This document shows, in pieces, positions 29,194 through 62,975 of a DNA stretch of 64,000 nt. Source of the stretch: a bacterium. GTDB taxonomy: Bacteria; Patescibacteriota; Minisyncoccia; Phycocordibacterales; UBA2100. Made by a program: the position numbers and the translations under genes. The stretch is taken from NCBI GenBank assembly GCA_016789445.1, contig JAEUQT010000001.1, positions 259,603 to 323,602 on the forward strand, read 5' to 3'. The notes beneath the pieces are model-generated. The model was not told the origin of the DNA and ran no database searches. It saw only the letters and a list, made by a program, of their open reading frames with translations. Numbering within the stretch: position 1 is the stretch's first letter; each line of letters starts with the position of its first letter.

Positions 29194-29194
29194 T

Positions 29195-30444: not shown

Positions 30445-30491
30445 ATTCTAACATCGCGCAGTGATGCACCAGCTATACTGTGTGTACGAAT

Positions 30492-31478
30492 ATGGTGATC
30501 AACGAAGGCGGGAACTATCAAGACATGATCGCCGGCATCGAAGCCGAGAAAAAAAGCGTTGTCATCACCGATGACGCAGACACGAAGAAGGAAGGGTGGA
30601 TCCATCGCCATCCGTTTCTTGCAACCATCCTCGGCATCGTCGGACTTTTGTTTCTCGGCATTGCCCTGGTCGCTAATCGCATCGATGTAAATCCTGCGAG
30701 TTCCAGTGGCGCATGGGGCGGTGCAGGCGGTGCGTTCTTTGGAACAATTAAGAACGCCATTCCTACAGGGGTTAATACAAGCGACGTCGTGGTACGGCTT
30801 CAGTCACCTGATGATGCGTATGCCGCGGTGCCGATTTACAAGCCAACGGAACAAACCGACGTGCCAGCCGGCGTCGACGACATCGCGTCGCTCCTTGCGC
30901 AATTAGTGCAACACACGCCGGTTACCCCAGCCTCCACTCAAGAACCGGCAACACCCGATAGTTATTCATTCATCCCACAAGGATTGGTGAGCACCGAACC
31001 AACCACCAAGAAATTAAGCGCTGAACAAGAGAGGCTCAAAAGCTACGGAAACGCCGTCGGTACCCACATAAAAGGATATGAGGATACGCACGCTGGCTCC
31101 GCACAGATCCTCAAGGACCACGTGGAGGACCGCACGAATCCGGATAAGATACGTGCGCTCAAGATCCTCGGGACCGACATGCAGCAATTGGGGAATGACC
31201 TTAAAGACTTAGCAGAAGTGCCGGCTGATATTGCTGGCATGCACCGCACCTACGCAAATGCATACTTCGCTGCGGGTGCGAATCTCATTTTGATAGCGGA
31301 CACCTCCAGCGACGAACAGTTCGTCGACGCAATAACCAAGTACAACGCGGTCGTCGAGAAGCTCTCAGTGCAATTCCAGCTTCTTGTCGCACTCTTCGGC
31401 ACCAATGAGGTGTCATTCTCCCAGTCGGAACCGGGAAGTATCTTCATGTTTAGTCCGAATCTCTCGCTCGCGCAGTGA
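30492..31478 (+). CDS. hypothetical membrane-anchored protein; first gene of the T4SS-like cluster
   Basis: TM segment FLATILGIVGLLFLGIALVA. A TATACT -10-like element lies immediately upstream. Start alternatives are GTG 30480, ATG 30492 and ATG 30525. Confidence 0.5.
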   Translation: MVINEGGNYQDMIAGIEAEKKSVVITDDADTKKEGWIHRHPFLATILGIVGLLFLGIALVANRIDVNPASSSGAWGGAGGAFFGTIKNAIPTGVNTSDVVVRLQSPDDAYAAVPIYKPTEQTDVPAGVDDIASLLAQLVQHTPVTPASTQEPATPDSYSFIPQGLVSTEPTTKKLSAEQERLKSYGNAVGTHIKGYEDTHAGSAQILKDHVEDRTNPDKIRALKILGTDMQQLGNDLKDLAEVPADIAGMHRTYANAYFAAGANLILIADTSSDEQFVDAITKYNAVVEKLSVQFQLLVALFGTNEVSFSQSEPGSIFMFSPNLSLAQ

Positions 31479-31490
31479 TATAATTTTCGC

Positions 31491-32351
31491 GTGAACTCGG
31501 GACGCTCTCGTGGGGTTTCTCCCATTGCCACTGCAGCCGCACTTTCCGTTGCGCTTCTTCTCGCGGCAATCGGGTCATATATCGGTGATCACGTTCGTCG
31601 ACCTTCTACTCAAGCGCCCAAAGCGGCTCCGACAGCGGCACAAGAACAGCGATATGCATCAGTAGAAGATGCGGACAAGAATGGCCTGCCGGATTGGCAG
31701 GACGAATTGATGCGCGGTGGCGTCTCGTTCAGTACGACCAGCGCCTCAACGACCGAATCACGCGACCCCGTAACTGCTCTCGGCACTTCCTTAATCAACT
31801 CCCTCGCAAGCGGTTACTCCTCGCTTAAGGAGTTCAATATGTATTCAGACGAACAGGCAGAGAAGCTGGCTACGACCTTGGCCGCAAACTTCAAAGCACC
31901 CGACACCACGGTGGCCCATACGATTGATGAACTCACGGTCGATCCCGATACCTCATCTGGCGCCATCCTAGAGTACCGCAGCGACATGCGTGTGGCGCTT
32001 GCAGGCCTCGTCGATCTCGAAGCGGAACCGGAATTCTCTTTGTTTGCGCGCTACATCCAGACCAATGACCCTAAGTGGCTTACGGAACTCGGTAAAGCCG
32101 CTGAACGTTATCGCACCGCCGAGACAAATCTCATGAAAGTTACGGTCCCGGACACCGCCGCATATCTTCACCTCCGTGCAACGAACGCGACCGGTACCTA
32201 TGCCCAGACACTGGAGCGACTTGTCCGATTTGCGAAAGACCCACTCGCAACCATGGCGCTTTTGAGAACGTATAATGAGTCTGAGCGAGAATACCTTCTC
32301 GCGTTTGATGCATTGGCGAAATTCTATGCTGAGAATACTAGCGGGAACTAG
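31491..32351 (+). CDS. hypothetical membrane-anchored protein (286 aa)
   Basis: GTG start, N-terminal hydrophobic segment IATAAALSVALLLAAIGSYI. No family recognised. Confidence 0.45.
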   Translation: MNSGRSRGVSPIATAAALSVALLLAAIGSYIGDHVRRPSTQAPKAAPTAAQEQRYASVEDADKNGLPDWQDELMRGGVSFSTTSASTTESRDPVTALGTSLINSLASGYSSLKEFNMYSDEQAEKLATTLAANFKAPDTTVAHTIDELTVDPDTSSGAILEYRSDMRVALAGLVDLEAEPEFSLFARYIQTNDPKWLTELGKAAERYRTAETNLMKVTVPDTAAYLHLRATNATGTYAQTLERLVRFAKDPLATMALLRTYNESEREYLLAFDALAKFYAENTSGN

Positions 32352-32364
32352 GGAAGATCGTGTC

Positions 32365-33924
32365 GTGCGGGCGATACTTTGCGCAGCGCTCGTGCTGTTT
32401 CTCCTCTCTATCGTTCCGGTCTTCGCACAAGAGGCAGAAGAGCCGGCCCCTACACCAACCCCGACTCCGAGCCCGACGCTCTCAAATGACGGTATCTTCG
32501 GATGCCGCGGCCAAGGAGCTAATATCGCAAACGTCGGTACGCTTTCCGCGATCGGCGGAGTGTATGTTCCCGTCAACGACGCAGCGGTAACGCTCAATAC
32601 CGGCTATCTCGTATATAAGGAATGCGTTCTCGATGCGGTTGCGCGCAAGATCGCTGAAAATTCCACATCCGAACAAGCGCGTCAGGTTATTAACGCAATC
32701 GGAAACGGTCGCGGCGGTAACCCTCAATACGTCGTGAATGAGCGCAACGAGATCAAGCAACAGAACAACATTCTCGTCGTGAACATGCTCCAGAACGCCG
32801 ATAACACCAATGCGGTCTGCTCGGCATTCCGTGGTTCCGTAAGAAGCACTATTGCACGCCAGTATGTCCTGAACACAAACCAGGCTGCTTCTCCGTTTAC
32901 CTGCACCATGCCGGGAGAGGGAAGCAGCTACTGGGAACGCCTCGCGGCACTGCGCGATCCGCGCAATAACGAATACGGCGCATATCGAATCGTCGACGAA
33001 TTGCGACGACGAACGCTTTCATATAACGAATTCAACCAACGCGAACGCTGGCAACGATCGGGAGGTTTCTACGACACGACGAGCAGCAACGAGGACCCGA
33101 TGAACTCGAACATCATCACGCCCGGCTCTATCGTGCAACGCTCGCTTGATCAGATGCTCGGCTCCGGTTTCCGTCAACTTGAAAGCGCAGATGAGATCGA
33201 TCAGGTGGTAGGTAATCTCTGGGGAGGTCTTACGACCCAGCTCGTCGCCGATACTCGAGGCCTTTCGGGCCTTACACAGTCGGTCAATGGACAGCCGTCA
33301 TACATCGATCGCATGACGGCACAGACCGCCGCAAGCGTCCGCCAACAGGCGGCCAACACCGCCCTCAGCGTTATCGGGGCCGCTCGCCAGATCGAGACGA
33401 CCTATCGCCAAGCGAAAGAGGGAATCGCGACCGCGCTCTCTAATTCCATCGAGCAGCTCCGTGCAGCGGAGAATCAATGCTGGGGACTCATTATCCCGAA
33501 AGTACAGGAAGCTGCAGGAACAGGAACACAACTCAATATCGCAACCTCGACCCGTTTCTCGCAGCCGATCATCGATGCGCAGATCGCACCGCTCGCCACC
33601 AGCACCATTCGCGATATCCGCAATTCCGACGCAGCTATCGCGCTTCTCAACGAGCTCATCTCAAGCGTATCGAACAGCGCTTCGCAAGCGAACCAGCAGC
33701 AGGCACTCCTTCGTCTCGACACCATGGTTGCAAACCGCCAGCTTCATACCGCTACGGATGCAACAAACGCGTCGACGCAGCGCGACAACGTGGCGAGCGC
33801 GCTTACGAAGCTTGTCGAGGACACGGTCAAAGCCTGGGGGGATAGCACCGATCCGAACGTCGGATGGTGCAACGTCAATAATCAGGAGGTGGTTACGAAG
33901 TGGCTTAACGAGTGGAGGATATGA
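32365..33924 (+). CDS. large secreted hypothetical protein (about 520 aa)
   Basis: Signal peptide RAILCAALVLFLLSIVPVFA followed by a Pro/Thr linker. Start ambiguous between ATG 32326 (26-nt overlap with the previous gene) and GTG 32365. The stop overlaps the next start (ATGA). Confidence 0.5.
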   Translation: MRAILCAALVLFLLSIVPVFAQEAEEPAPTPTPTPSPTLSNDGIFGCRGQGANIANVGTLSAIGGVYVPVNDAAVTLNTGYLVYKECVLDAVARKIAENSTSEQARQVINAIGNGRGGNPQYVVNERNEIKQQNNILVVNMLQNADNTNAVCSAFRGSVRSTIARQYVLNTNQAASPFTCTMPGEGSSYWERLAALRDPRNNEYGAYRIVDELRRRTLSYNEFNQRERWQRSGGFYDTTSSNEDPMNSNIITPGSIVQRSLDQMLGSGFRQLESADEIDQVVGNLWGGLTTQLVADTRGLSGLTQSVNGQPSYIDRMTAQTAASVRQQAANTALSVIGAARQIETTYRQAKEGIATALSNSIEQLRAAENQCWGLIIPKVQEAAGTGTQLNIATSTRFSQPIIDAQIAPLATSTIRDIRNSDAAIALLNELISSVSNSASQANQQQALLRLDTMVANRQLHTATDATNASTQRDNVASALTKLVEDTVKAWGDSTDPNVGWCNVNNQEVVTKWLNEWRI

Positions 33925-36032
33925 TCGCATCCCGAACATTCCGCCTCGCCCTCGTCTTTCTCGTCTCGGCACTTTTCATTGCTGCCATAATTACGCCGCA
34001 TATTGCCCTCGGCCAGGAAGCGGCAGCACAGGCAACCATCGAGCCTAATGATTCTTGCAGTATCTGGAACGGAACCTGGGGATTCAACTGTGGCATCTGG
34101 TACCCATTCATGAGCGCGTTGGGAACCTTACTCCTTTCGTTCAGTATCAGTGTACTCGTGGTGCTGGGAGCAATCTTCGATCAATTCCTCTCGGCGCTGG
34201 TCGTCTCTTTTCAGGACACACTCGTCTCACTCAACATACTCGGTGGCATTCAGATCGCTTGGCAGCTTTTCCGCGATATCACCAACGTCGTCATTATCGG
34301 CGTCTTCGTCTTCGTCGCCATCATGACCATCCTCGGCAGCACAGAGTATGGGACCAAACGGCTTGTCTCTCGCGTTCTCATCGTAGCGATCCTGATCAAT
34401 TTCAGCCTCCTTTTCACACGCGTCGTCATTGAAAGCACCAATTTCGTATCAGCTCAATTCGCGCGGTCTATGCCGAACAATGCGCTCACCGCTGGGGTTG
34501 CGCAGAGCTTCTTGCAGGCATTTGGTATCGACGGCACGATCAGCGGCACCTACGAGCTTACGCGCCGCGTCGCAACGGAAACGGATAGCGGCTGGGCGGC
34601 ACTCATCTATGGAGTCGTCGCGGGCAGCGTGCTCTTAGTCATCGCACTCGTCTTTCTCTATGGGATAGTCATCATCAGCGCTCGCGCGCTGCTTCTGGTG
34701 TTCATGATGATTACTGCACCGATCGCGTTCGCATCATTCTTAATCCCCACATGGTCAAACCAGGCATATATCGGTTGGAACAATTGGTGGTCAAACCTCC
34801 TCAAGGCGGCGATGTTCGGCCCGATATTCATGGTGTTCCTCTGGATCGCGATGCAGATAATCGCCCGGGGGAGCGTGGCAAACGCAGGAGCGGCTCTCGG
34901 CAAACTCGCGAATGACCCATCCAAGATGGATGTGAACGCGTGGCAGCAGCTGATCTTCCTCATGATCGGTACCGGCGTTCTCTTTATCGGCATACGCGCA
35001 TCAAGTTCATTCGCAGCGTCCATCGGCGGCTTCAACTGGGCGACTGTAGCATCACTACTGCCGGTCACTCTCGGTTCTCGCTTCGCAGCAGCTCCTGCAC
35101 TTCGTCGCTTCGTCGGCCAGCCTGCGCTTGAACGACAACTTCAGTACGAAGATGACATCAAGCGAGCGAAAGCGCGAGGCGACTGGTCTCAAGCAGCACT
35201 TCTTCAGAAAGACTATTCGAAGGCTGCGAAAATGGCATCTCGTGACTTTAATGCGATGAATTCCAATGTTTCGAAGCTTCTCACGAAATCACTTGGCGTT
35301 CCCAGCATGCTGGGCGGAGAAAAGAAATTGGGCGGAGCTGCTGGTATCGCGACTGCCGCGGCAAAAGAAACAGCGAAGGAGCTCAAGAACCTTCAGCCTT
35401 CGGCTCAAGATCTCGCTTCTGCAAGCAAAGCGGCGGCAAGCGAGGTTCGAGAGGGGAATAAGGCGCTCGCAGAATCTCTCAAGGGTGATCGTGATGCGGC
35501 TGTCGCACGACGAGAAGCCGCGGGCGGATCAGGTTCGGGTACGAGGACTGAACAGAAACAGATTACCGACACCATCCGCAAGGCGGTTGAAGATGGCAGC
35601 TCTTCGGGCGCTAACGCTGCGCAGCGCCAGATCGAACACAAACGCGAAGTGGATGCCGAACGAAAAGCTGAGATCGGTCAGGTTACTAACAAGATTGCCG
35701 AAGTTAAGACCGACGTGAACCGAAATATCGCACAGGAAATCAATGACGCGCAGGCCGCCCTAGGTCCGCTCTCTATGCTCGATGCAGACGTAACAAATGC
35801 CACTAACCGGATGACAATGAATCAGTTCGAGACAAATCAAAAGGCGATTGAAGCTAGTCAGAATGCGCAGTTAGGTGCCATTGATATGCTACAGAGCGCA
35901 ATTCAAGACTCTCTTTCCCGAAGCGGGAATGATAATGCAGCAACAGCGAAAATTGCTATGAAGCTGGTTGAAAAACAGAATCCGAACGTTGGGCGAGTTA
36001 TGAGCATTGCAAGACAAAATGGTCTTAAATAA
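33921..36032 (+). CDS. VirB6/TrbL-like polytopic membrane protein with a long hydrophilic coiled-coil C-terminal extension
   Basis: N-terminal signal/TM, a Cys-containing loop, then about 6 TM helices over residues ~60-380, followed by ~320 aa of Ala/Lys/Glu-rich hydrophilic sequence. This topology is typical of T4SS VirB6/TrbL. ATGA start-stop overlap with the upstream gene. Confidence 0.55.
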   Translation: MIASRTFRLALVFLVSALFIAAIITPHIALGQEAAAQATIEPNDSCSIWNGTWGFNCGIWYPFMSALGTLLLSFSISVLVVLGAIFDQFLSALVVSFQDTLVSLNILGGIQIAWQLFRDITNVVIIGVFVFVAIMTILGSTEYGTKRLVSRVLIVAILINFSLLFTRVVIESTNFVSAQFARSMPNNALTAGVAQSFLQAFGIDGTISGTYELTRRVATETDSGWAALIYGVVAGSVLLVIALVFLYGIVIISARALLLVFMMITAPIAFASFLIPTWSNQAYIGWNNWWSNLLKAAMFGPIFMVFLWIAMQIIARGSVANAGAALGKLANDPSKMDVNAWQQLIFLMIGTGVLFIGIRASSSFAASIGGFNWATVASLLPVTLGSRFAAAPALRRFVGQPALERQLQYEDDIKRAKARGDWSQAALLQKDYSKAAKMASRDFNAMNSNVSKLLTKSLGVPSMLGGEKKLGGAAGIATAAAKETAKELKNLQPSAQDLASASKAAASEVREGNKALAESLKGDRDAAVARREAAGGSGSGTRTEQKQITDTIRKAVEDGSSSGANAAQRQIEHKREVDAERKAEIGQVTNKIAEVKTDVNRNIAQEINDAQAALGPLSMLDADVTNATNRMTMNQFETNQKAIEASQNAQLGAIDMLQSAIQDSLSRSGNDNAATAKIAMKLVEKQNPNVGRVMSIARQNGLK

Positions 36033-36037
36033 TCATT

Positions 36038-36586
36038 ATGCCCGGGCAAGATCCTGAACTAAATAAACACATTGCCGAACGATTCAAGGCATTGCCGCCG
36101 GTCGTCCAGAAAGCGATTACCTCTTCAGATATTGAGAAGAATCTCCGCACCATGGCAGATGGTCAAAAATTACATGTGGACCAATGGCAGGCACTCGAAA
36201 ACGAGGTCATGTTCTCCTTACTGGGCTTCAAGCCCGTAGCAGAGTTGGAAAAAAACCTCGTAAAGTCGGTTGGAGTTACCGCCGAAGTAGCTCATGTGCT
36301 TGCGGTAGATGTAAATCGCATCGTCTTTGAACCAATTCGACAAGAACTAGAGAGAGAACTACAACACCCGGCGGCCCAGGAAGCTGCCGTAAGCGGCACC
36401 GAAGCCGCACGAGCACAGGCGATTTCACAAGAAGCGGCGGCGGCAGCTCCCGCACCGACTCCACCCACTCCAAAACCTGACGCCACTGCTGCGCGAGCGC
36501 CTGCTTCGGGGGCATATAAACCGGGGGAGACCTCTGCACAACGAAAATCGGTTACCGACGATCCATATCGTGAAGTGCCACTCTGA
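36038..36586 (+). CDS. hypothetical protein (182 aa), Ala/Pro-rich C-terminus
   Basis: ATG 6 nt after the VirB6-like stop. No motif recognised. Confidence 0.45.
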   Translation: MPGQDPELNKHIAERFKALPPVVQKAITSSDIEKNLRTMADGQKLHVDQWQALENEVMFSLLGFKPVAELEKNLVKSVGVTAEVAHVLAVDVNRIVFEPIRQELERELQHPAAQEAAVSGTEAARAQAISQEAAAAAPAPTPPTPKPDATAARAPASGAYKPGETSAQRKSVTDDPYREVPL

Positions 36587-36629
36587 AAGATGAAGTAGTG
36601 GCGCACAAATACTTGGTATACTGCTGGGG

Positions 36630-37127
36630 ATGCAGTTCCAGGTTCCTCAATTCATCGAGGTGGAGGACAAGATCTTCGGTCCGCTGACGTTCAAGCAGTT
36701 CGTCTATATCACGGGCGGAGCCGGTATTTCCTACATGCTCTGGCGATCGCTTCCGATCTACGTCGCCGTCCCATTCATCGCACTCTTCGGCGGCCTCGGG
36801 ATCTCACTGGCCTTTTTCCAATACAACGGCCAACCGTTCATCCAATCCCTTGAGCATGCCTTTTTCTACTTCACCCGCAACAAGCTCTACCTTTGGAGCA
36901 ACGAAGAAGCTATCAATACCCGTAAGAAGGCGGCAACTATCACCACCGCCTCGGCAACTCCCTACGTACCGCACCTCTCTGACAGCAAACTGCACGACCT
37001 TTCGTGGAGCTTGGATATCCAGGAGCGCATCAACGCCGGCACCGCCGACGCGGAGGATAGGGAACAGGTCTCGCCTCTGAAGGACTTGGTCGCTCCGGTA
37101 CGCACCGCGAAGGACGCTCTCATTTGA
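36630..37127 (+). CDS. PrgI-family/VirB3-like small membrane protein of Gram-positive-type T4SS
   Basis: 165 aa. Motif FKQFVYITGGAGISYMLW plus a second TM (VPFIALFGGLGISLAFF). Sits immediately upstream of the VirB4 ATPase, as PrgI/VirB3 does. Confidence 0.5.
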   Translation: MQFQVPQFIEVEDKIFGPLTFKQFVYITGGAGISYMLWRSLPIYVAVPFIALFGGLGISLAFFQYNGQPFIQSLEHAFFYFTRNKLYLWSNEEAINTRKKAATITTASATPYVPHLSDSKLHDLSWSLDIQERINAGTADAEDREQVSPLKDLVAPVRTAKDALI

Positions 37128-37128
37128 T

Positions 37129-37818
37129 ATGCCACAAGACACCGCACAATCTGCCTCCTCGAAGGTCAGCAGCCGTTCGACACAGGAGTTCGTCCCGATC
37201 AGCGAGGTCCGTGACGGCATCGTGGTCCTCAAGGATGGGAGCCTGCGTGCAATCCTTCTCGCTTCATCCATCAACTTCGCCCTCAAATCGGAGGACGAAC
37301 AGACCGCCTTCATCGTCCAGTTCCAGAATTTCCTTAACTCATTGGACTTTTCGTGCCAGATCTTCGTCCAGTCCCGCATGTTGGACATCCGTCCGTACAT
37401 CGCGACCTTGGAAGTAGCGTACAAGAAACAGATGGACGACCTCATGCGTATCCAGATCCGTGAATACATCGAGTTCATCAAGAGTTTCACGGAGGCAGCG
37501 AATATCATGACGAAGAACTTCTTCGTGGTCGTGCCATACGCTCCCGCAGCGCTCCAATCGCTCAATAGCGGCGGTATCGCGAGCAAGCTCCCGTTCGGAC
37601 AGAAGACCTCTCCCAGCGCCGCCGAAGCCAATCGCACCTTTGAAGAGAAGGTCTCGCAGCTCGAACAGCGCGTCGGTATCGTGCAGCAGGGATTGGTGCG
37701 TTGCGGCGTCCGCACCGTACAATTAGGCACCGAGGAGGCGATCGAGCTCTTCTACAAGCTCTTCAACCCGGGCGAAGAAGGGAAGCCGATGCCAGTGGAT
37801 AACATCACGCCGCAGTGA
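37129..37818 (+). CDS. VirB4/TrbE N-terminal fragment, encoded as a separate ORF
   Basis: The segment VPISEVRDGIVVLKDGSLRAILLASSINFALKSEDEQTAFIVQFQNFLNSL matches the remembered VirB4 N-terminus pattern (lvdD-tialrnGdlmrvfrvqGvafe-a-ddaein-w-erlN-llrni). It ends at TGA 37816-37818. Confidence 0.55.
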   Translation: MPQDTAQSASSKVSSRSTQEFVPISEVRDGIVVLKDGSLRAILLASSINFALKSEDEQTAFIVQFQNFLNSLDFSCQIFVQSRMLDIRPYIATLEVAYKKQMDDLMRIQIREYIEFIKSFTEAANIMTKNFFVVVPYAPAALQSLNSGGIASKLPFGQKTSPSAAEANRTFEEKVSQLEQRVGIVQQGLVRCGVRTVQLGTEEAIELFYKLFNPGEEGKPMPVDNITPQ

Positions 37819-37819
37819 T

Positions 37820-39769
37820 ATGGGACTTTTTGATTTCCTTACGAAAAAGAGCGACGAGCCGGCAGCGGTCTTACCGGTCTTGCCGGAAGAAATCTATCGC
37901 ACCGGCGTCCTTGGCCTGCAGGACGTCATCGCTCCGCACGCACTGAAGATCTCTCCGCGCGAACTCGATCTGGGGGAGAAGATCGCCCGCACCTTTTTCG
38001 TCATCTCGTACCCTCGCTTCCTCACGACCGGCTGGTTTGCGCCGATCATCAACATGGACAAGGTGATCGACGTCTCGATTTACGTCCATCCGATGGATAC
38101 GAACGACATGCTTCGTAAGTTCCAGAAGAAAGTCGCGGAGGTACAGAGCCAGATCAGCGCTCGCGAGGAGAAGGGGATGGTGCGTGATCCGGTGCTGGAC
38201 ACCGCCTATTCAGACCTCGAAAAGCTCCGCGACAGCCTTCAGCAGGCACAAGAGCGCATCTTCGAAGTCGGGCTCTATCTCACCATCTACGGGTCCACCC
38301 GTGAGGAGATCGATAAGACGGAGAGCGAGATCCGCAGCATCTTGGAGTCACGCCTCGTGTACATCCGCCCCGCACTCTTCCAGCAGGAACAGGGCTTCCG
38401 CTCGGTCATCCCGCTCGCGGGCGACGAGCTGGGCGTGCACACCAAGCTTAATTCCGCACCGCTTTCCTCGATCTTCCCGTTCATTTCCTTCGACCTTACG
38501 TCGGATAGGGGAATCCTCTATGGCATCAATCGTCACAACTCGTCCCTCATCCTCTTCGATCGGTTCTCGCTCGAAAACTACAACTCGGTGACCTTTGCGA
38601 AGTCCGGCTCCGGTAAGTCGTATACGACGAAGCTGGAGATCCTGCGAAGCCTCATGTTCGATACCGAAGTCATCGTCATCGACCCGGAACGAGAATACGA
38701 ATACCTTGCGGAAACCGTCGGCGGCCGCTACTTCAATATCTCACTCTCGTCTGAGCACCATATCAACCCGTTCGACCTTCCGATCCCACGCGAAGACGAA
38801 GCTCCGTCGGATGTGCTCCGTAACAACATCATTACGCTCGTGGGTCTTTTCCGCATCATGCTCGGCGGACTTACTCCGGAAGAGGACGCGATCATCGACA
38901 AGGCGATCACGGAGACCTACGCCCTCAAGGACATCACCGCCGATGCGAACTTCGCCTCGATCGAACCACCGCTTCTTTCTGACTTCGAGCTCGTCCTCAG
39001 CGGCATGGAGGGTTCGGAATCGCTCGTGCAACGACTCTCGAAATACACGAAGGGAACATGGTCGGGATTCATGAACCGCCCGACGAACGTGGACATGAAC
39101 AAGAAGCTTGTCGTCTTTTCCGTACGCGACATGGAAGACGATCTGAAGCCGGTCGCGATGTACATCATCACCCACCACATCTGGAATACCGTCCGCAAGG
39201 AACTCCGCAAAAGATTGCTCGTCATCGATGAAGCGTGGTGGATGATGAAATCCCAAGACACCGCCTCCTTCCTCTTCGGTATCGCAAAGCGCGGCCGTAA
39301 GTACTATCTCGGCCTCTCGACGATCACCCAGGACGTGAACGACTTCCTCACTTCGCCCTATGGAACGGCCATGATCACCAACTCGTCGATCCAGATCCTC
39401 CTGCGCCAGTCACCGACATCAGTCGATCTCGTCCAGCAGACCTTCAAACTCTCCGATGAAGAGAAGTATCTCCTCCTCGAGTCGGATGTGGGGGAAGGAA
39501 TCTTCTTCGCCGGTCTCAAACATGTCGCGATCAAGGTGATCGCCTCGTATACCGAGGACCAGATCATCACGTCAGACCCGTCCCAGATCCTTGCAATCAA
39601 GAAAGCGAAGCAGGAACTGGCTGCATCGAATGAAATCCCCGGTGGCCCTGCCGCACCGGCGGCCCGCGCAAGCGCCGCTGAAGCACTGAAGGCGATGGCT
39701 CTCAAGGAAGCGAGCGGCACTGCGCAACAGGCATCACAGGAACCGCTTCCACCGACCAGCGTCCAGTAG
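37820..39769 (+). CDS. VirB4/TrbE/PrgJ-type T4SS ATPase (main body)
   Basis: 649 aa with Walker A FAKSGSGKSYTT and Walker B LLVIDEAWWMM. The arrangement follows VirB4 family order. It starts 1 nt after the preceding stop (TGA-T-ATG), in a different frame. Confidence 0.75.
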   Translation: MGLFDFLTKKSDEPAAVLPVLPEEIYRTGVLGLQDVIAPHALKISPRELDLGEKIARTFFVISYPRFLTTGWFAPIINMDKVIDVSIYVHPMDTNDMLRKFQKKVAEVQSQISAREEKGMVRDPVLDTAYSDLEKLRDSLQQAQERIFEVGLYLTIYGSTREEIDKTESEIRSILESRLVYIRPALFQQEQGFRSVIPLAGDELGVHTKLNSAPLSSIFPFISFDLTSDRGILYGINRHNSSLILFDRFSLENYNSVTFAKSGSGKSYTTKLEILRSLMFDTEVIVIDPEREYEYLAETVGGRYFNISLSSEHHINPFDLPIPREDEAPSDVLRNNIITLVGLFRIMLGGLTPEEDAIIDKAITETYALKDITADANFASIEPPLLSDFELVLSGMEGSESLVQRLSKYTKGTWSGFMNRPTNVDMNKKLVVFSVRDMEDDLKPVAMYIITHHIWNTVRKELRKRLLVIDEAWWMMKSQDTASFLFGIAKRGRKYYLGLSTITQDVNDFLTSPYGTAMITNSSIQILLRQSPTSVDLVQQTFKLSDEEKYLLLESDVGEGIFFAGLKHVAIKVIASYTEDQIITSDPSQILAIKKAKQELAASNEIPGGPAAPAARASAAEALKAMALKEASGTAQQASQEPLPPTSVQ

Positions 39770-39770
39770 T

Positions 39771-40079
39771 GTGAAGTACATCGACCGACACACCGCCATT
39801 AAGATGATCGCGACGGCAGCGGCAGTCGACGCAGCGCAGGGTGCCCTCACCGCATCGTATGTGGGCATCCTTTTTGCACCACTCCTCAGCGCCGGCGCCG
39901 CCTATGGATTCTGGAAATGGTTTGCCCGCCACGAAGGAGAGAGCCCGGATCCACGTAAGAACCCCCGCCTCATGACCATCGCGCTTGAATTCATTCCCGG
40001 CCTCGACGCATTACCGCTCTGGACCATCACCATCATTCTTGCGGTCATCGCGCATAACCGCGCTTCTCGGGAGGTATAA
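39771..40079 (+). CDS. small two-TM membrane protein (102 aa)
   Basis: GTG start 1 nt after the VirB4 stop (TAG-T-GTG). Hydrophobic helices are visible. Confidence 0.45.
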   Translation: MKYIDRHTAIKMIATAAAVDAAQGALTASYVGILFAPLLSAGAAYGFWKWFARHEGESPDPRKNPRLMTIALEFIPGLDALPLWTITIILAVIAHNRASREV

Positions 40080-40087
40080 TATCCGGG

Positions 40088-41122
40088 ATGGTCTCTCTCC
40101 GGAGGAGCACATGGGGTCTTCTCGTACTTCTGATTGTCCCGTTTTTTACGCACGCACAACTTCTTACCGGACTCGAGCGACCGCTTGATGTCTCAATGAC
40201 TCCGCAATATCCCGCAGCAGGGGAAGAAGTGCGGCTGAGTGTCTCAAGCTACGGACTGGATCTCGATCGCAGCGCCATCATCTGGTACGCGGACGGGAAA
40301 GAGATCGCCCGGAATACCACAGAAACAAAGGTAACCGCCGGCAAATTGGGCTCTCTCATAAATATCACCGTCGTCGCAGAAGAAACGGATGGACTCATCG
40401 GCAGCGGTAGCGCTCGGATCCGCCCGACCGAAGTCGATCTTATATGGAGCTCGGATTCCTACGCGCCGCCGTATTTCAAAGGAAGGAAGCTCGCGGGAAG
40501 CAGCGCTCGGATCCGCGCGGAAGCACTGGTACGCTTCACGCGCGCCGATGGTACGATGATACCTTCAAACGAAATCATCTATACCTGGCATCGCGGCACG
40601 ACACGCATCCTGCAGGGAAGGGGCCGTTCAAGTGTGGAATTCGCCGGTCCTGCATTATTCAGCAGCGAGGAGGTCACGGTATCCGCACAATCTACTGACG
40701 GTGCGTATGTGGGCAGAGCATCGGTGCGCATCTCAGGGGTCGATCCGACGCTTGAGCTCTACGAGAACCATCCGCTTTTCGGCGTCCTCTATCATCGCGC
40801 GCTTACCGGCAGCGTGGTTACCGCCGAGAAAGAGCAGCGCGTCACCGCAGTCCCGTATTTCGCGCACGTCAGTACCCCTGAAGAGAAAGCCCTTTCATAC
40901 TCGTGGTCCGTCGCCGGAGGACCGGTTCGACCAAATCCGGATGAACCGCAAAACCTCACCGTCACTTCCAATGGCTACGCCGGACCCGCACGCATCGAAC
41001 TTGATCTCACGAGCGCGAGCGATCTTTTCTTGAAAGCGCGAGGAAGCTGGGAATTGGTATTCAGCGAATCAGCATTGTTCTCGGGATCAGGAAGTGATGA
41101 TCCGTTTGCGCGACCCGAATAG
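40088..41122 (+). CDS. secreted hypothetical protein (344 aa)
   Basis: Signal peptide MVSLRRSTWGLLVLLIVPFFTHA. Composition suggests a beta-rich protein. Confidence 0.5.
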   Translation: MVSLRRSTWGLLVLLIVPFFTHAQLLTGLERPLDVSMTPQYPAAGEEVRLSVSSYGLDLDRSAIIWYADGKEIARNTTETKVTAGKLGSLINITVVAEETDGLIGSGSARIRPTEVDLIWSSDSYAPPYFKGRKLAGSSARIRAEALVRFTRADGTMIPSNEIIYTWHRGTTRILQGRGRSSVEFAGPALFSSEEVTVSAQSTDGAYVGRASVRISGVDPTLELYENHPLFGVLYHRALTGSVVTAEKEQRVTAVPYFAHVSTPEEKALSYSWSVAGGPVRPNPDEPQNLTVTSNGYAGPARIELDLTSASDLFLKARGSWELVFSESALFSGSGSDDPFARPE

Positions 41123-41124
41123 AT

Positions 41125-42366
41125 ATGAAAAAACACGAGACCACGTTCATGTATATCGGCTTTGCGGCCATCGGGCTTCTTCTCGTCGGCCTCGCAGGTT
41201 GGTACTTCTTTATCTCCCGTCAGACCGCAGATCTCGAGACCCTGAGAGAGTCCCGCGGTTTCGACATCGGCGTACCGTCATTCGGCGGCACTCGTGGTTC
41301 AACCGCAGAAAATATCGAGGGAGGTTTCGGACTCGCTCCGTCTTCTGAACAACCCTCTGCCCAAGAAGGGGAAGAACCTCGTGCGCCACGTTTCTGGCGC
41401 GTAAGCACCAGTCCTATTGCAGGCGCTGGTTTCGTAATGATCGATTCCGTTCCGGTGCTGCGCTACGTAGAACGCTCAACCGGACATGTATTTGATGTGA
41501 ATCCGATGACCGGCACGATCACCCGCAGAACCAATCGTCTGATTCCTAAAGTATACGAGGCGATCGTGGGGCCGCACGATGCCGTGATTCATCGTACGAT
41601 TACCGCAGACGGGGAACGCGAGACTTTCGTAGGACAACTCGCGACGACGACCGTCGACGGATTCACTCCGCTCACCGGCACCGATCTCGGACCTGATGTG
41701 CGCGACATCGGATTCACCAAATCCGGCATCGTCTTCCTCTCGGCAACTGAGAGCGGCGCCACGCAATTGATAGAAGCAGCGATCGATGGATCCAAGCCGG
41801 TCGAAAAACGACTATTATCCGCGGGTGATTTCAAGCTTGAGAGCCTCGTCGATGGCCGCACCATCCTCACTGAACGTCCGGCAAGCGGCATTCCGGGATA
41901 TGCGTATGAAGCAGGCACCACACTCATCCCGCTCGCCCGCGCAGTACCGGGACTTACGCTCGCAGCACGAGCAAGTTCAACGGCAGTCATCATAGGTGCG
42001 GATGACGGATCCAAGCTCTCCCTCGCGGTGCGCCCGACTCGGGACGCTTCACTCGTACCGCTCGATCTCGCGACCGTCGCCGATAAGTGTGTCTGGATGC
42101 CGGGAACCAGTCTCACCGCATACTGCGCCGTACCGCGCACGCTGCAACCGCTTGGATATCTCACCAACTGGCATCGCGGGACGATACACACCAGCGATTC
42201 GTGGCACCTTGTCGATGTCGGAGCAGGGAAGACGGAGAAATTCTTCGAGATCCGCGAGGATGATGCTATCGATGTGGAGCGCCCGATCACCGACGAAGGA
42301 GGGAATTACATCGCATTCATAAATGCCCGCGATAAATCGCTCTGGTTACTGCGTATAATTGAATAG
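41125..42366 (+). CDS. membrane-anchored hypothetical protein (413 aa)
   Basis: N-terminal TM FMYIGFAAIGLLLVGLAGWYFFI, then a large extracytoplasmic domain. Confidence 0.5.
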   Translation: MKKHETTFMYIGFAAIGLLLVGLAGWYFFISRQTADLETLRESRGFDIGVPSFGGTRGSTAENIEGGFGLAPSSEQPSAQEGEEPRAPRFWRVSTSPIAGAGFVMIDSVPVLRYVERSTGHVFDVNPMTGTITRRTNRLIPKVYEAIVGPHDAVIHRTITADGERETFVGQLATTTVDGFTPLTGTDLGPDVRDIGFTKSGIVFLSATESGATQLIEAAIDGSKPVEKRLLSAGDFKLESLVDGRTILTERPASGIPGYAYEAGTTLIPLARAVPGLTLAARASSTAVIIGADDGSKLSLAVRPTRDASLVPLDLATVADKCVWMPGTSLTAYCAVPRTLQPLGYLTNWHRGTIHTSDSWHLVDVGAGKTEKFFEIREDDAIDVERPITDEGGNYIAFINARDKSLWLLRIIE

Positions 42367-42368
42367 GT

Positions 42369-42722
42369 ATGCCTTGTCAGGAAACATCACCCGGGAATTC
42401 AGGTTGCGGGACCGTCGCAGAAAGCCGCACCGTATATATGTCGAACCTGTTCAATCCGAACAATACGGACCTGCAGGCATTCTTCAATATCCTCTTTACG
42501 GTCGCCATATCTATCGGTGCCATCCTTGCGGTTCTCCGGCTCGCATATGCAGGCGTCGTCTATATGACGACCGACCTCGTGACCAGCAAGCAGAATGCGC
42601 GTCAGATGATCGCCGATGTCGTCTTGGGACTCATCGTCCTCTTGGCGATCTGGGTTATCCTCTTCCAGATCAATCCCGACCTTCTTAACCTCGATATCCT
42701 CCGCAGCGTACGGACTTCGTAG
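42369..42722 (+). CDS. candidate T4SS pilin (VirB2/TrbC-like small hydrophobic protein)
   Basis: A charged leader is followed by two hydrophobic helices (FFNILFTVAISIGAILAVLRLAYAGVVYM ... VVLGLIVLLAIWVILFQI). Size and topology are typical of a VirB2 propilin. Alternative start ATG 42438. Confidence 0.45.
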   Translation: MPCQETSPGNSGCGTVAESRTVYMSNLFNPNNTDLQAFFNILFTVAISIGAILAVLRLAYAGVVYMTTDLVTSKQNARQMIADVVLGLIVLLAIWVILFQINPDLLNLDILRSVRTS

Positions 42723-42725
42723 AAT

Positions 42726-43190
42726 CTAGGCGGCCGGAGCGTAGCGGATAACGACACGTCGGTTGCGTCCTTCTCCTTGGGATTCGGTCTTTACGTTCGG
42801 CGCGTCCTGAAGCGTCGTGTGCACGATGAGCCGCTCGTAGGCACTCATGGGATTCAATTCAACATCATATTGAAACGAGCGAGCGCGCTCCGCCATCATA
42901 AGGGCCTTCGCTTGAAGATCACGGATCTGTCGGGAGCGATACTCATTCACATCGACGAGGAACATCGGTTCTTCGCCACTCTCGGTTTTCGAGTGACGCT
43001 GTTCAACGATCTTCTTGAGAAGGAGATCGATGGCATGCACCGTATCCCCATGCGCACCGATCAGAGCTTTCGGATCCTGCACGCTGATGTTGTAGACGAT
43101 CTGTCCTGCAACATCGATGCGAGAGACGCTGTCATAGGCGACGCCAGTCGCATCAAGGAGTTCAGTGAGCGTCTTCTCAACGTCTTCCAT
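42726..43190 (-). CDS. jag: Jag/R3H-domain RNA-binding protein (SpoIIIJ-associated)
   Basis: 154 aa with KH-like and R3H regions. Conserved position next to yidC. Confidence 0.75.
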   Translation of the reverse strand: MEDVEKTLTELLDATGVAYDSVSRIDVAGQIVYNISVQDPKALIGAHGDTVHAIDLLLKKIVEQRHSKTESGEEPMFLVDVNEYRSRQIRDLQAKALMMAERARSFQYDVELNPMSAYERLIVHTTLQDAPNVKTESQGEGRNRRVVIRYAPAA

Positions 43191-43254
43191 AGGAAAGACT
43201 GTATCACTATCGCGGGAGCGCGGCTAGTTTCCTTCAAAACGGCTTTATTGCTTA

Positions 43255-44013
43255 CTATTTCGCTGTTTCGGAAGCCGTTTCCTTCGCAGGTTCGCGGAAC
43301 CGGCGACCCATCACGAACTCCTGGGCGATCATGAAGACGTTGCTCGTAGTCCAGTAGAGCGGGAGCGCCGCCGCAAGTGTCGATGAGATGCCGGCAAAAA
43401 GAAGAGGAAGGACATAACGTGCCTGCAGATCGAAACTGTGGGCCATGTCCGACGAGAACGTCGGGTTCTCCTCCTTTACACGTGGCTTACGCTTGCCCAT
43501 GGAAAGACGGGTATAGAGATACTGGGTGAGGCCCGTAAGCGCCGCCAAGAAGAAACTGCGCTCAGACATGTCGAACATGCCCAGGAACTCCATGTTCACA
43601 CGCTCCGGCGCAGGAACGAAGGCATAGAGCGTATCCGCATTGATGGCAGGGAAACCGCCTTTCCAGAAGACCCAGTAGAGACCGAACAGGATCGGGAGCT
43701 GGAGGAAAATAAGGAAGAACGTCGCAAACGGACGGATGTTACGTTCGCGATAGAGCGCGAAGATGGCACGAGCCTGCTCTTCAGGCTTGTCTTTGAATTT
43801 CTCCTTGAGTCGTTCTACCTCGGGAGCAATCTCGCGCATCAGGGCCTGGGTACGGATTGCCTGTCGAGAGAGGGGGAGGAGGATCAATTTGACGAAAATA
43901 GTAAGAATGACGACCGCGATGCCGATGTCGTGCGCCGGCACGATATCCACCAGAAACACGAGTCCGTTATAGAGCGGCTCGTAGATGAAATTGAAGAAAG
44001 CAGCTTTGAACAT
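43255..44013 (-). CDS. yidC: membrane protein insertase YidC (short Gram-positive/CPR type)
   Basis: 252 aa with multiple TMs. The conserved YidC/Oxa1 core region is present. Confidence 0.85.
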   Translation of the reverse strand: MFKAAFFNFIYEPLYNGLVFLVDIVPAHDIGIAVVILTIFVKLILLPLSRQAIRTQALMREIAPEVERLKEKFKDKPEEQARAIFALYRERNIRPFATFFLIFLQLPILFGLYWVFWKGGFPAINADTLYAFVPAPERVNMEFLGMFDMSERSFFLAALTGLTQYLYTRLSMGKRKPRVKEENPTFSSDMAHSFDLQARYVLPLLFAGISSTLAAALPLYWTTSNVFMIAQEFVMGRRFREPAKETASETAK

Positions 44014-44038
44014 TGTGGCATTCTACCCCAGGCTGGCC

Positions 44039-44377
44039 TCAATCGATACTATTGCCGCTCTTACGTGCCAGAGCGAAGATTTCACTCCGGATCCGAGCTG
44101 CGTCAGCCTCAGTTGCCGGCTTTTTTGCATAGAAAACAAGAGCTACCCCGGGAGAGAGGCGAGGGAGTGCCCGCTGCACAGCAGCTCGCGCACGTCGCTT
44201 GATGAGATTGCGCGTATTCGCTCGGGGAGCGATCTTGGCCGAGACCACGCAGGCAAATCCAGGACTACTCCTGTCCGGCAAGGTACCGAACGACAGCGAG
44301 AAAAGGGTGCCATGCACCCTTTTGAAGCCCCGCATCCGCGTGAAATCGGCTCGGGAAAGTCGATAGTGTGCCGGCAT
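44039..44377 (-). CDS. rnpA: ribonuclease P protein component
   Basis: 112 aa, basic protein. Start overlaps the rpmH stop (TAATG). Confidence 0.85.
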   Translation of the reverse strand: MPAHYRLSRADFTRMRGFKRVHGTLFSLSFGTLPDRSSPGFACVVSAKIAPRANTRNLIKRRARAAVQRALPRLSPGVALVFYAKKPATEADAARIRSEIFALARKSGNSID

Positions 44378-44511
44378 TAGAGTGCCAAGCGGGCGCGACC
44401 CTTACGCATACGGCGCTGGATGACGCGCTTACCCGTCTTGGTCTTGAGGCGTGCACGGAAACCGTGCGTGCGGACACGCTTGATCTTCTTCGGCTGGTAG
44501 TTTCGCTTCAT
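44377..44511 (-). CDS. rpmH: 50S ribosomal protein L34
   Basis: Translates to [44 protein letters not shown], almost the universal L34 sequence. Missed by the ORF track because it is under 60 aa. Confidence 0.95.
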
Positions 44512-44700
44512 GGCGGAAAAATAGCACGTATTTCCTTGCCTTTCAAGCGGCAAAGTGGGGGAGAAGTGAGTTATCCACAGGTTATAAACATGTGGATGAA
44601 TACCCCCTACCGCTTCCCGACAGACACCGAGAGCGTATAATGCTTCTATATATGCGTGCGTGCGTCTCGATAGAGGGAGGTTGTTTGGATATCCACACCT
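44512..44700. other. oriC part 1 (rpmH-dnaA intergenic) with DnaA boxes and the dnaA promoter
   Basis: TTATCCACA at 44571-44579 (perfect), TGTGGATGA at 44591-44599 (reverse orientation), aTATCCACA at 44689-44697, and a TATAAT element near 44634. Confidence 0.7.
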
Positions 44701-46050
44701 ATGATGACTAATCGAGAATTGTGGCAGAACGCCCTCGTCCAGATAGAGCTTGGCACCTCCGAAGCCTCATTCCGTACCTGGTTCCGTAATACGGACATCG
44801 TCTCGAGAGACGCCAATATCGTCCAGATCGCCGTTCCCTCCAAGATCGTCAAAGAGTGGCTCATGGATAAGCACCATAAGCTCATCTTAGGGACCCTTCG
44901 CTCGCTCGATAACACCATCCGCTCCGTCGAATACGTAGTCCATCGCTCAGCAGGGGAGCCTCGCCGCCAAGAGAAGCCACAACCACAACAGCAGAATGCT
45001 GCCTTAGATCTGGGAACCCTCTACATCGACAAGCGGGATAACCTCAACCCGCGATATACCTTCGATACGTTTGTCGTCGGCCCCTTCAATCAGCTCGCGC
45101 ACGCGGCGGCAAAGGCGGTTATCGAGCGCCCGGGCCTCGCGTATAACCCGTTCTTCGTCTACGGCTCAAGCGGCCACGGCAAGACTCACCTCATCCAGGC
45201 GATCGGGAACCATTTCAAGAAGATGCACACCAACAAGAAGGTCTTCTACGTCTCTTCGGAACGTTTCGCGGTGGACTTCATCAATGCGGTCTCTCGTGGT
45301 CGCGCAAATGAGTTCAAGGATCAATACCGTCAATATGACGTCCTCATCATGGATGACGTGCAATTCATGGCGGAGAAGGAGCGCACCCAGGAAGAGCTCT
45401 TCCACCTCTTCAATGCGATGCACGACAATAACAAGCAGATCATCTTCTCGTCTGATAAGCACCCTATGCTGCTCCCGGGCTTCGAAGATCGAATCCGCGG
45501 CCGCCTCTCGGCAGGTGTCATCATGGAAATTCCTGAACCGGATGTGGAAAGTCGTACCGCGATCATCAAAGCGAAAGTCGAACAGCTCGGCTTCAGCCTT
45601 GCCGATGACATCGTAGGCCACATCGCCGAGAGCGTTCGTGGCAATATCCGCGAACTCGAGGGTATCCTCAACATGATCGTCTGCAAGTCCCAGCTTAAAG
45701 GGAAGGCGATTTCGCTTCCGGATGTCCGTGCACTCATCAAGCACAATGTCCGACCGAACAAGGGAGTCTCCGTCGAAGAGGTGGTGCGTCGCATTGCCCA
45801 GTACTACGAAGTCGCCGAGAAAAGCATCTACGAAAAGACTCGGAAGAAGGAAGTGGTCAAACCACGCCAGATCATCATGTACGTCTTGCGGGAAGAGTTC
45901 AGCGTGTCGTATCCTTCGATAGGGGAGAAACTGGGTGGCCGCGACCACACGACGGTCATCCACTCGTGCGAAAAGATCAAAGAAGAGATCAAGCGGAACA
46001 ACTCGCTTGAACAGGAGCTCGAGCATATCCGCACGCTTGTCCACGCCTAG
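44701..46050 (+). CDS. dnaA: chromosomal replication initiator protein DnaA
   Basis: 449 aa. AAA+ motifs [10 protein letters not shown] and DDVQF, and a C-terminal DNA-binding domain. Confidence 0.95.
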
Positions 46051-46385
46051 CAGTATGAACTCCACCGACCTTCAGCAGGCTCACCATTCCAGGGCCGCTG
46101 AGGTGGAAGACATGGCGCATACCGGTGTGGGTAACCTGTGGACAGGTGAAGGATCGGTAATGGGGATAAGCGATGCGCGAAAGAAGGACAGACGCGGGGA
46201 TATCGTTATTACAGACTTTTCCGCAGTAATCCCCACCGCCTATCCCGGGCAATCGACAGGGTATTCCACAGGAGGTATGTACGAAAAAACGGCACGAGAT
46301 ATGGATATTTCAGGCTTATCCACCTATCCACGCTGCTAATAGTAATAATAAGTATTTATTTAGAAAGAATTATAAAAATACCCGT
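46051..46385. other. oriC part 2 (dnaA-dnaN intergenic) with DnaA boxes and an AT-rich DNA-unwinding element
   Basis: TTATCCACC at 46316-46324, TATCCACGC at 46325-46333 and tATTCCACA at 46262-46270. A 44-bp AT-rich run (taatagtaataataagtatttatttagaaagaattataaaaata) lies at 46337-46380. Confidence 0.65.
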
Positions 46386-47486
46386 ATGCAATTCACGACA
46401 CCGAAAGAAAGGATCCTGAATGCCGTGTTGGTTGCGGAGAGGATCGTGGGGAAGAAAGAATCTCTCCCGGTTCTTTCCTGCATCCTTCTCGATGTCGGAC
46501 GTGATCTTGCGATGCGCTCCACAAACCTTGAGGCGGGTGTCGACATCCAGGTTCCGGGTGAGGTAGTGGAAACAGGGACTATCGCCGTACCTGCGGCGAT
46601 CCTTTCGCAAACCCTGCGAGCCGTTTCGGGGGATAAGGTGACGCTGAAGGCAGAGGGTGGAAATCTGCTCATCGAGTCGCGTGGTTCCAAGACCCTCATA
46701 AAAGCAGTGCCGCATGACGAGTTTCCTGCTATTCCTGCGACCAAGGAGACGACCCGTAGTCTTTCACTCTCTCGAGAGACCTTGGTGCAGGCACTGCATT
46801 CTGTTGCCTACGCCGCATCGACTTCCATGATCCGTCCGGAATTAGGAAGCGTGTATCTGAAGGTGGAAGAAGGGAAGCTCACTGCGGTTGCAACCGATTC
46901 GTTCAGATTGGCCGAAAAAACGGTCTCAGACGCATCAGGAAAAGGAAATGACGAAGTCCTCATTCCGCTCAAGCACGTGCAGGAGATCGTACATTTGCTC
47001 GAAAAAACGGCATCCGAAGAAGTTTCTCTATCCATCGATGATTCACAACTGCTTCTTGTAGCTGATTCGATCCGTTTCGTCTCGCGTGTAGTGGATGGGA
47101 ATTTCCCGAACTATAAGGAGATCATTCCCAAAAGCTTCGCGACCGAAGCGACGATCCTTAAGAGTGATTTTACCGAAGCCCTTCGCAAGGCCCGTGTGTT
47201 TTCTGGTGCCGACCAGCATGTCGGTTTCCATGTATATCCGAAGAAAAAGGTGTTCGATATCACTGCGCAGAGTGCAGCCATTGGTGAGATGTCGGATTCG
47301 TTGGAGGCAGCGACCTCAGGGGATGATATCGACGTCAATTTCCATATCGGCTACATCGCTGATTGTCTTCAGTCGATCCAATCCGATTCGATCGTGCTGG
47401 GGTTTGCCGGCCCGGGGAAGCCGGTCGTCGTGAAGGGGGTGTCTGACGCGTCATTCACGTATCTCGCGATGCCCCTCAATCGGTAG
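46386..47486 (+). CDS. dnaN: DNA polymerase III beta sliding clamp
   Basis: 366 aa with the three-domain beta-clamp pattern. Conserved position after dnaA. Confidence 0.9.
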   Translation: MQFTTPKERILNAVLVAERIVGKKESLPVLSCILLDVGRDLAMRSTNLEAGVDIQVPGEVVETGTIAVPAAILSQTLRAVSGDKVTLKAEGGNLLIESRGSKTLIKAVPHDEFPAIPATKETTRSLSLSRETLVQALHSVAYAASTSMIRPELGSVYLKVEEGKLTAVATDSFRLAEKTVSDASGKGNDEVLIPLKHVQEIVHLLEKTASEEVSLSIDDSQLLLVADSIRFVSRVVDGNFPNYKEIIPKSFATEATILKSDFTEALRKARVFSGADQHVGFHVYPKKKVFDITAQSAAIGEMSDSLEAATSGDDIDVNFHIGYIADCLQSIQSDSIVLGFAGPGKPVVVKGVSDASFTYLAMPLNR

Positions 47487-59687: not shown

Positions 59688-59695
59688 TTTACATG

Positions 59696-62974: not shown

Positions 62975-62975
62975 A

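Follow-up and report, generated by a model that had tools for sequence, protein, structure and literature searches.

Two adjacent genes at the virB4 locus

The window studied here, a stretch of 64,000 nucleotides from contig JAEUQT010000001.1 of the patescibacterial assembly GCA_016789445.1, carries on its plus strand a cluster of type IV secretion system (T4SS) genes (36630-42722) in which the sequence of the ATPase VirB4 is distributed over two consecutive open reading frames (ORFs). The ORF list and the raw sequence show that ORF1 (37129-37818, 229 aa) is closed by a TGA at 37816-37818, that a lone T follows at 37819, and that ORF2 (37820-39769, 649 aa) begins with the ATG at 37820, in the +1 frame relative to ORF1. 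Upstream, the raw sequence has a TAG at 37724-37726 that closes the ORF2 frame. A first-pass annotation, made from the sequence alone, had described both this TGA-T-ATG junction (37816-37822) and the upstream stop, and the sequence bears it out on both. While members of the VirB4/TraC/TrbE family are single polypeptides of about 750-830 aa, the locus holds two ORFs of 229 and 649 aa, and their sum of 878 aa, which had been taken for the size of a normal VirB4, is in fact somewhat above the typical one. The C-terminus of ORF2 is an Ala/Pro/Gln-rich tail of about 50 aa, and the ends of ORF1 and ORF2 at the break are unaligned. Directly upstream lies a gene (36630-37127, plus strand) for a small membrane protein of 165 aa of the PrgI family (VirB3-like; Pfam PF12666, E 3e-9, 37.7 bits, cut-off 27), which is annotated likewise in independent assemblies.

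The junction between prgI and ORF1 (37125-37131) is again TGA-T-ATG, and the heptamer TGATATG also joins pcrA (27289-29193) to rsmA (29195-29971) at 29191-29197, as well as a gene pair on the minus strand (62972-62978). As a word, the heptamer was only mildly enriched in the window, with 12 occurrences against 5.6 +/- 2.8 in shuffled sequences, 3 of 100 of which reached at least 12. Since gaps of 1-8 nt between genes are the rule across the operon, we take the junction to reflect tight gene packing and not a special device. The earlier observation that the three junctions share one form stands.

ORF2 encodes a VirB4-family ATPase without the first N-terminal subdomain; it comprises what remains of the N-terminal domain, followed by the P-loop ATPase at the C-terminus. 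It matched the NCBIfam model NF045971 (CD1110-family VirB4) over positions 186-733 of 752 with 360.1 bits (cut-off 325), and fell under the cut-offs of TIGR00929 and the remaining VirB4 models. The Pfam match was P-loop_TraG (E 4.9e-26), and the Protein Data Bank (PDB) matches included the VirB4 C-terminal domain 4ag5 (E 3e-42) and TrwK of R388 (E 2e-7). Both nucleotide-binding motifs are in place, the Walker A sequence KSGSGKSY at residues 261-268 (38600-38623) and the Walker B sequence LLVIDEAW at residues 466-473 (39215-39238).

ORF1 encodes a TrsD-like protein, called 'TraC-like' in Pfam, that corresponds to the first N-terminal subdomain of VirB4 made as a separate polypeptide. Its NCBIfam matches were confined to the N-terminal segments of VirB4 models, namely VirB4_plasma (Mbov_0397 family; positions 97-233 of 894, E 3.2e-10), CD1110-family VirB4 (2-118 of 752, E 2.2e-6) and TIGR00929 (4-179 of 792, E 3.4e-4), and to the 201-position TrsD/TraD model NF041427 (12-142, E 1.6e-8). 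PF26593 ('TraC-like') is precomputed in public annotation for this exact protein and for all its close homologues; our local Pfam copy gave no significant match to ORF1, PF26593 included. An AlphaFold2 model built with 64 homologues had a mean predicted local distance difference test score of 85.9 and a predicted template modelling (TM) score of 0.74, with reduced confidence in the tail, and the best 14 Foldseek matches of this model in the PDB were all TrwK/VirB4 chains of R388 (probability 1.00, TM 0.46-0.56), after which the next match dropped to E 0.28. Only this fold comparison recovered VirB4 from the PDB; sequence searches with ORF1 alone or with a 64-sequence profile did not find it there. 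A word-indexed search scored 7999 homologues of ORF1, and the 120 listed were all of 205-240 aa; an exhaustive search of cluster representatives returned 2372 with E <= 1e-3, the top 150 of which comprised one protein of 797 aa and others below 450 aa. The closest homologues all came from metagenome-assembled genomes (MAGs) of Patescibacteria. ORF1 fits, in short, a free-standing protein of about 200-350 aa that is homologous to the VirB4 N-terminus and is encoded immediately 5' of an N-terminally shortened VirB4 ATPase, as it also is in 77 relatives and in three Firmicutes plasmids described below. We refer to ORF1 and ORF2 as trsD and virB4, respectively.

The two products are complementary. 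On the 752 positions of the CD1110 model, ORF1 takes 2-118 and ORF2 186-733, with no overlap, so that the N-terminal domain of VirB4 is present but divided (ORF1 covers 4-179 of TIGR00929). In addition, the 797-aa protein mentioned above (P0264) is a fused homologue from Patescibacteria that is colinear with both ORFs: residues 18-215 of ORF1 align with its residues 8-210 (39% identity) and residues 29-598 of ORF2 with its residues 226-796 (56% identity), and the protein itself spans positions 18-725 of TIGR00929. Its gene (L088:544-2937, in the patescibacterial MAG GCA_964615945.1) lies 3' of prgI and adjoins jag-yidC-rnpA-dnaA. As far as can be judged from these gene sequences, fused and split states would both exist within the phylum, the fused one in a single assembly. 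About 15 residues of the fused protein bridge the two alignments, which places the break in a linker of about 15 residues between folded units; this position fits the lower confidence of the tail of the ORF1 model, and also the fact that the alignment of ORF2 leaves out its residues 1-28. Aligning both products to VirB4 references, a check that the first-pass annotation had proposed, thus upheld its assignment of the VirB4 N-terminal segment to the 229-aa ORF and of the Walker A/B ATPase body to the 649-aa ORF. It gave no indication that the smaller protein belongs to a different family altogether, as its profile matches are to VirB4 N-terminal and TrsD/TraC-like models and its fold matches in the PDB are to TrwK/VirB4 only.

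Conservation of the split and its explanation

The exact 229-aa protein was found in independent Logan assemblies of four SRA runs, in which the junction was identical; the full 649-aa gene came next in two long contigs, and its cut-off start in the other two. Two of the four assemblies represent a slightly different strain, with nine substitutions in the 60 nt on each flank of the junction. All nine fell on third codon positions, five of them upstream in the frame of ORF1 and four downstream in the frame of ORF2 (codon phases were counted by hand), which shows that purifying selection switches frame exactly at the junction.

We then compared the 80 best related loci, taking one genome per species; these relatives are Kaiserbacteria/Paceibacterota MAGs, and 77 of them hold both genes. 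The result was uniform, as trsD and virB4 were encoded separately in 77/77 and virB4 always opened with its own conserved ATG. The gap between the genes was most commonly 1 nt (16/77); it measured 1-13 nt in 44 loci, 16-21 nt in three and 69-411 nt in 30. With respect to trsD, virB4 was offset by +1 in 37 relatives, by +2 in 22 and by 0 in 18, and trsD ended in TAA, TAG or TGA. The earlier preference for a genuine split over a random sequencing frameshift is therefore strengthened by the four assemblies, the synonymous changes and the comparison of orthologous loci that had been suggested along with it. Its wording that the pair is 'translationally coupled' is plausible but inferential: the 1-nt gap is the commonest one, yet spacers of 69-411 nt occur in 30 of the 77 loci.

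Three other explanations deserve consideration. A single virB4 gene could have been broken by an indel introduced in sequencing or assembly, or by a frameshift that recently turned it into a pseudogene, and two ORFs lying 1 nt apart in adjacent frames are indeed what a 1-nt indel would give; moreover, a fused 797-aa homologue does exist. However, the same junction was read in four assemblies from different SRA runs, the 9/9 substitutions near it are synonymous in the frame used on each side, and 77/77 loci have a separate virB4 with a proper ATG, at gaps and in frames that vary; the split recurs, moreover, in complete plasmids of cultured Firmicutes. Besides, the TAG at 37724 and the frame-1 TGA are so placed that one indel restores no colinear protein without loss of conserved residues. 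This possibility appears to us vanishingly small. Hardly any more credit can be given to a prfB-like mechanism in which ribosomes would undergo a programmed +1 frameshift on reaching the TGA and so make a fused VirB4. The +1 frame of ORF2 and the stop codon at the would-be shift site are what such a mechanism needs, but there is no conserved slippery site, the gaps range from 1 to 411 nt, the offsets (37/22/18) include in-frame stops, any stop codon is used, and virB4 always has its own conserved ATG; in three species a complete 117-aa gene even stands between trsD and virB4 (one inspected, two judged by spacer length). A split so conserved with gaps, frames and stops so varied excludes, in our judgement, sequencing error and programmed frameshift alike.

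The third alternative, that the 229-aa protein is an independent accessory factor derived from the VirB4 N-terminal domain, such as a regulator or a PrgI adaptor, is also unlikely, although considerably less so. It draws on the TrsD homologues of Gracilibacteria that are not beside virB4 (PMC12102498), on the C-terminal extensions of 100-200 aa that some ORF1 homologues carry, and on the many relatives that are probably able to express trsD and virB4 separately. It has to contend with the fact that the segment missing from ORF2 is precisely the one present in ORF1, their profile coverage being complementary, as well as with a fused orthologue that lies in a similar genomic context and is colinear with both ORFs, and with the adjacency of prgI, trsD and virB4 in 77/77 loci.

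We believe that the ORF pair is very probably a genuine two-gene form of the T4SS ATPase VirB4, as in the chromosomal T4SS of Patescibacteria. The homology, the complementary halves, the conservation of the split and its independence from sequencing error are observations. The first 200 or so residues of the VirB4 N-terminal domain are made as a free TrsD/'TraC-like' protein, and the remainder plus the ATPase as the 649-aa protein. In the mechanism that we propose, transcription of prgI, trsD and virB4 would depend on the -10 box whose end lies 7 nt 5' of the prgI start codon, and ribosomes ending at each TGA would most likely re-initiate at the ATG one base later for the downstream genes. The TrsD-like subunit would then assemble non-covalently with the ATPase body and with PrgI (VirB3-like), rebuilding the membrane-proximal VirB4 motor. 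In the R388 structures 7O41 and 8RTB, VirB3 and the tails of VirB8 bind the VirB4 N-terminal domain.

Several points weigh against this proposal or parts of it. The binding of the TrsD-like protein to the ATPase or to PrgI is a prediction. ORF1 scored 34.6 bits on NF041427, far under the cut-off of 200, so that its assignment rests on PF26593, the N-terminal VirB4 profile matches and the fold; the Foldseek output, in turn, carries no target coordinates, and the placement in the N-terminal domain comes from profile coordinates and not from a structural alignment. As to expression, a promoter scan requiring a -35 hexamer found nothing upstream of prgI and left the TGGTATACT box unreported. Lastly, tight coupling is not conserved, as 30 of the 77 relatives have spacers of 69-411 nt, some of them with their own -10-like boxes, and re-initiation from TrsD is consequently not obligatory across the clade.

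Expression signals, junction elements and neighbouring genes

The putative promoter of the cluster is an extended -10-like box, TGGTATACT (36614-36622, plus strand), that ends 7 nt before the prgI ATG and is shared by most relatives: most of the 77 have a TGnTATAAT/TATACT box whose end lies 6-8 nt 5' of the prgI start codon. This spacing suggests that the prgI-trsD-virB4 transcript may be leaderless or nearly so. A promoter and terminator consensus scan of 36000-43300 found nothing at the trsD-virB4 junction, and promoter-like sites were fewer than in shuffles. TAnAAT-like boxes were also seen about 5-10 nt before the ATG of several genes, among them those at 40088 and 12844 and, on the minus strand, at 53151-54845 and 60702-61694.

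Shine-Dalgarno (SD)-like motifs were present at only 6 of 56 gene starts in the window (crude ORF set), which is consistent with the lack of the anti-SD motif reported for a subgroup of Parcubacteria (PMC9297842), and T was preferred at position -1 of gene starts (26/55). Given the 1-nt stop-start gaps and the missing SD motifs, termination followed by re-initiation is the most likely route for translating trsD and virB4 here. A stronger proposal would be that, in a lineage poor in SD motifs, translation of virB4 depends on ribosomes finishing an upstream ORF, the stop-start juxtaposition being a conserved and selected expression signal. A stop does lie near the virB4 ATG in many loci, that of trsD 1-13 nt before it in 44/77 relatives and in the window, and that of a mini-ORF in 23 of 27 relatives whose spacer measures 69-175 nt. 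Even so, we advance this idea tentatively and hold it to be doubtful. Were it true, the split would let the efficiency of re-initiation set the output of TrsD and of the ATPase.

The spacers of 69-175 nt have a structure of their own. They consist of two inverted arms of three or four tandem 7-nt units, with CTA or CTG every 7 nt, as in L001, L010, L027, L042, L048, L063 and about 20 more loci (for instance, L063:1110-1203 and L001:6663-6764). The sequence of the unit is species-specific and the period is kept: at lag 7 the mean autocorrelation is 0.50, and the remaining lags give 0.22-0.28. The arms pair into hairpins of 20-30 bp (z-scores -3.0 to -6.7), and the centre of about 35 nt nearly always contains an ATG and in several cases a -10-like box. 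The mini-ORFs mentioned above start with ATG, have at least five codons and end 0-20 nt before the virB4 ATG; shuffles gave 3.9 +/- 1.8 such cases and 0/1000 reached 23, a statistic obtained from phylogenetically related loci. Whichever ORF precedes, one usually stops near the virB4 ATG in the relatives. Heptad arrays were also seen directly 5' of prgI, in place of the -10 box, in about a fifth of the relatives (for example, CTAGAAG CTAGCAG CTAGTCC CTAGCAG CTAAnnn ATG), and within the relatives' loci the pattern of four CTR-N4 units is concentrated at the starts of prgI and virB4. Tandem-repeat and pattern scans (CTR-N4 x4) found none of these heptad repeats in the window, and a literature search found no description of such elements.

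Complete genes for a '23S rRNA-intervening sequence protein' (PF05635) occupy similar places. One, inspected directly, lies between trsD and virB4 (L039:6673-7026), and the same insert can be presumed in L049 and L062, whose spacers have the same length as that of L039 (411 nt). In these long spacers the gene takes the place of the centre of about 35 nt between the inverted arms. Another (L018:5076-5447) stands 5' of prgI between heptad arrays, with its ORF ending inside the right-hand array (...KKLEARS*). The proteins of L039 and L018 are of 117-123 aa (E 1.9e-14 and 2.6e-39), and the short spacers may have arisen from inserts of this type by internal deletion. Taken together, the spacer elements and the inserted gene show the boundary of trsD and virB4 to be truly intergenic and tolerant of insertions.

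At the end of the T4SS cluster lies a candidate VirB2-like pilin gene (42369-42722, plus strand), whose match to Pfam T4SS_pilin (E 1.1e-5, 25.9 bits) is just under the cut-off of 26.6; this family is marked as weak in the annotation of independent assemblies too. The large ORFs at 30480-36032 and 40088-42366 (332, 286, 549, 706, 344 and 413 aa) had no Pfam match; candidates for VirB6/VirB8-like components are the ORF of 706 aa and the three that precede it. VirB6 is widely distributed in the T4SS clusters of Patescibacteria (PMC12102498), and a Pfam scan of the window proteins gave no VirB6-like match. Immediately 3' of the cluster there is a gene arrangement of the replication-origin type (42726-47486), as in many Patescibacteria (PMC12102498), with rnpA, yidC and jag (R3H) on the minus strand (42726-44377) followed by dnaA (44701-46050) and dnaN (46386-47486) on the plus strand. 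A 'tRNA-Stop (tta)' reported by ARAGORN on the minus strand (59695-59768) raised the possibility of an alternative genetic code, which was rejected: read by hand, the anticodon loop CUUUUAA and a normal 5-nt variable loop correspond to tRNA-Lys(UUU). Furthermore, TAA closes 20 of 44 hand-picked genes of the window, more than any other stop codon, so that there is no sign of stop-codon recoding.

Relation to known secretion systems

The association of TrsD with VirB4 is already known, having been published for Patescibacteria, and the small protein is covered by models in Pfam as well as in NCBIfam. In the account of Quinonero-Coronel et al. (2025, Microb Genom; PMC12102498), TrsD is a component in its own right, remotely homologous to the N-terminus of VirB4, and occurs in the pGO1 subclass of MPF_FATA. 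According to the same source, no other T4SS component is as abundant in Patescibacteria; of its 2,272 homologues there, 1,664 are beside virB4, while in Gracilibacteria TrsD homologues are found away from virB4, and TrsD is listed as essential in Southlakia epibionticum ML1. In Patescibacteria the T4SS often lies near dnaA and is reportedly indispensable for living as an epibiont (PMC12102498, which cites Wang et al. 2023 on the latter point). The words 'split' and 'two genes' are absent from that paper, and searches of it for these words and for TrsD brought up no breakpoint or spacing data. Compared with the system so described, the window has the same gene set (PrgI/VirB3-like protein, TrsD-like protein, VirB4 and a VirB2-like pilin candidate) in the same place, that is, on the chromosome and adjoining jag-yidC-rnpA and dnaA-dnaN, and in the same lineage, the window itself being assigned to Kaiserbacteria/Paceibacterota. 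We saw no substantive difference from the published account, and regard the locus as a typical instance. What is added here is the explicit complementarity of the halves, the similar position of the break in Firmicutes plasmids, a fused orthologue in a patescibacterial assembly, the spacing statistics over 77 species, and the heptad-repeat and intervening-sequence-protein inserts at the trsD-virB4 junction in relatives. For annotation, it follows that such a pair should be neither flagged as a frameshifted pseudogene nor 'repaired' into one gene, and that the small gene is best named TrsD-like N-terminal module of VirB4. A two-chain motor would also be relevant to structural and genetic work on the T4SS of Patescibacteria.

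The layout recurs on complete plasmids from cultured Firmicutes, as a tblastn search of plasmid sequences showed; the TrsD/TraD and TrsE/TraE systems (NF041427) of these bacteria likewise have a small VirB4 N-terminal protein directly 5' of an ATPase of about 620-640 aa. In Geobacillus subterraneus pGspE55-1 and Clostridium perfringens pJFP838A, a PrgI family protein is followed by a hypothetical protein of 312-318 aa and a 'DUF87' ATPase of 636-641 aa, and on a Halobacillus plasmid a DUF87 ATPase comes after a protein annotated as 'TrsD', with PrgI unannotated, so that PrgI precedes the pair in two of the three plasmids checked. The small proteins matched CD1110 at 2-174 (Geobacillus), VirB4_plasma at 86-284 of 894 (C. 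perfringens) and the TrsD model only (Halobacillus). The break falls at a similar point, since the three ATPases begin at CD1110 positions 162-183 (162 in Halobacillus, 172-183 in the other two) and that of the window at 186, a range of about 162-186 for the four. In contrast to the chromosomal locus of the window, these are conjugative or plasmid systems, and their small proteins are longer (312-345 aa). The likeness to systems of the pGO1 type comes from the NCBIfam family name and from PMC12102498, our comparison having covered the three plasmids named above.

With single-chain VirB4 proteins (R388 TrwK, 7O41 and 8RTB; the CD1110 family; TraC of F), the pair shares the Walker A/B ATPase domain and the fold of the N-terminal domain. 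TrwK is matched by ORF1 through its fold and by ORF2 through its sequence, and the two ORFs together span the CD1110 model; the difference is that one polypeptide is made there and two in the window. Finally, VirB3-VirB4 fusions are described in some conjugative systems (PMC12102498). They point in the opposite direction, being fusions where the window has a fission, with PrgI kept separate, and they indicate that the module boundaries around the VirB4 N-terminus are plastic in evolution.

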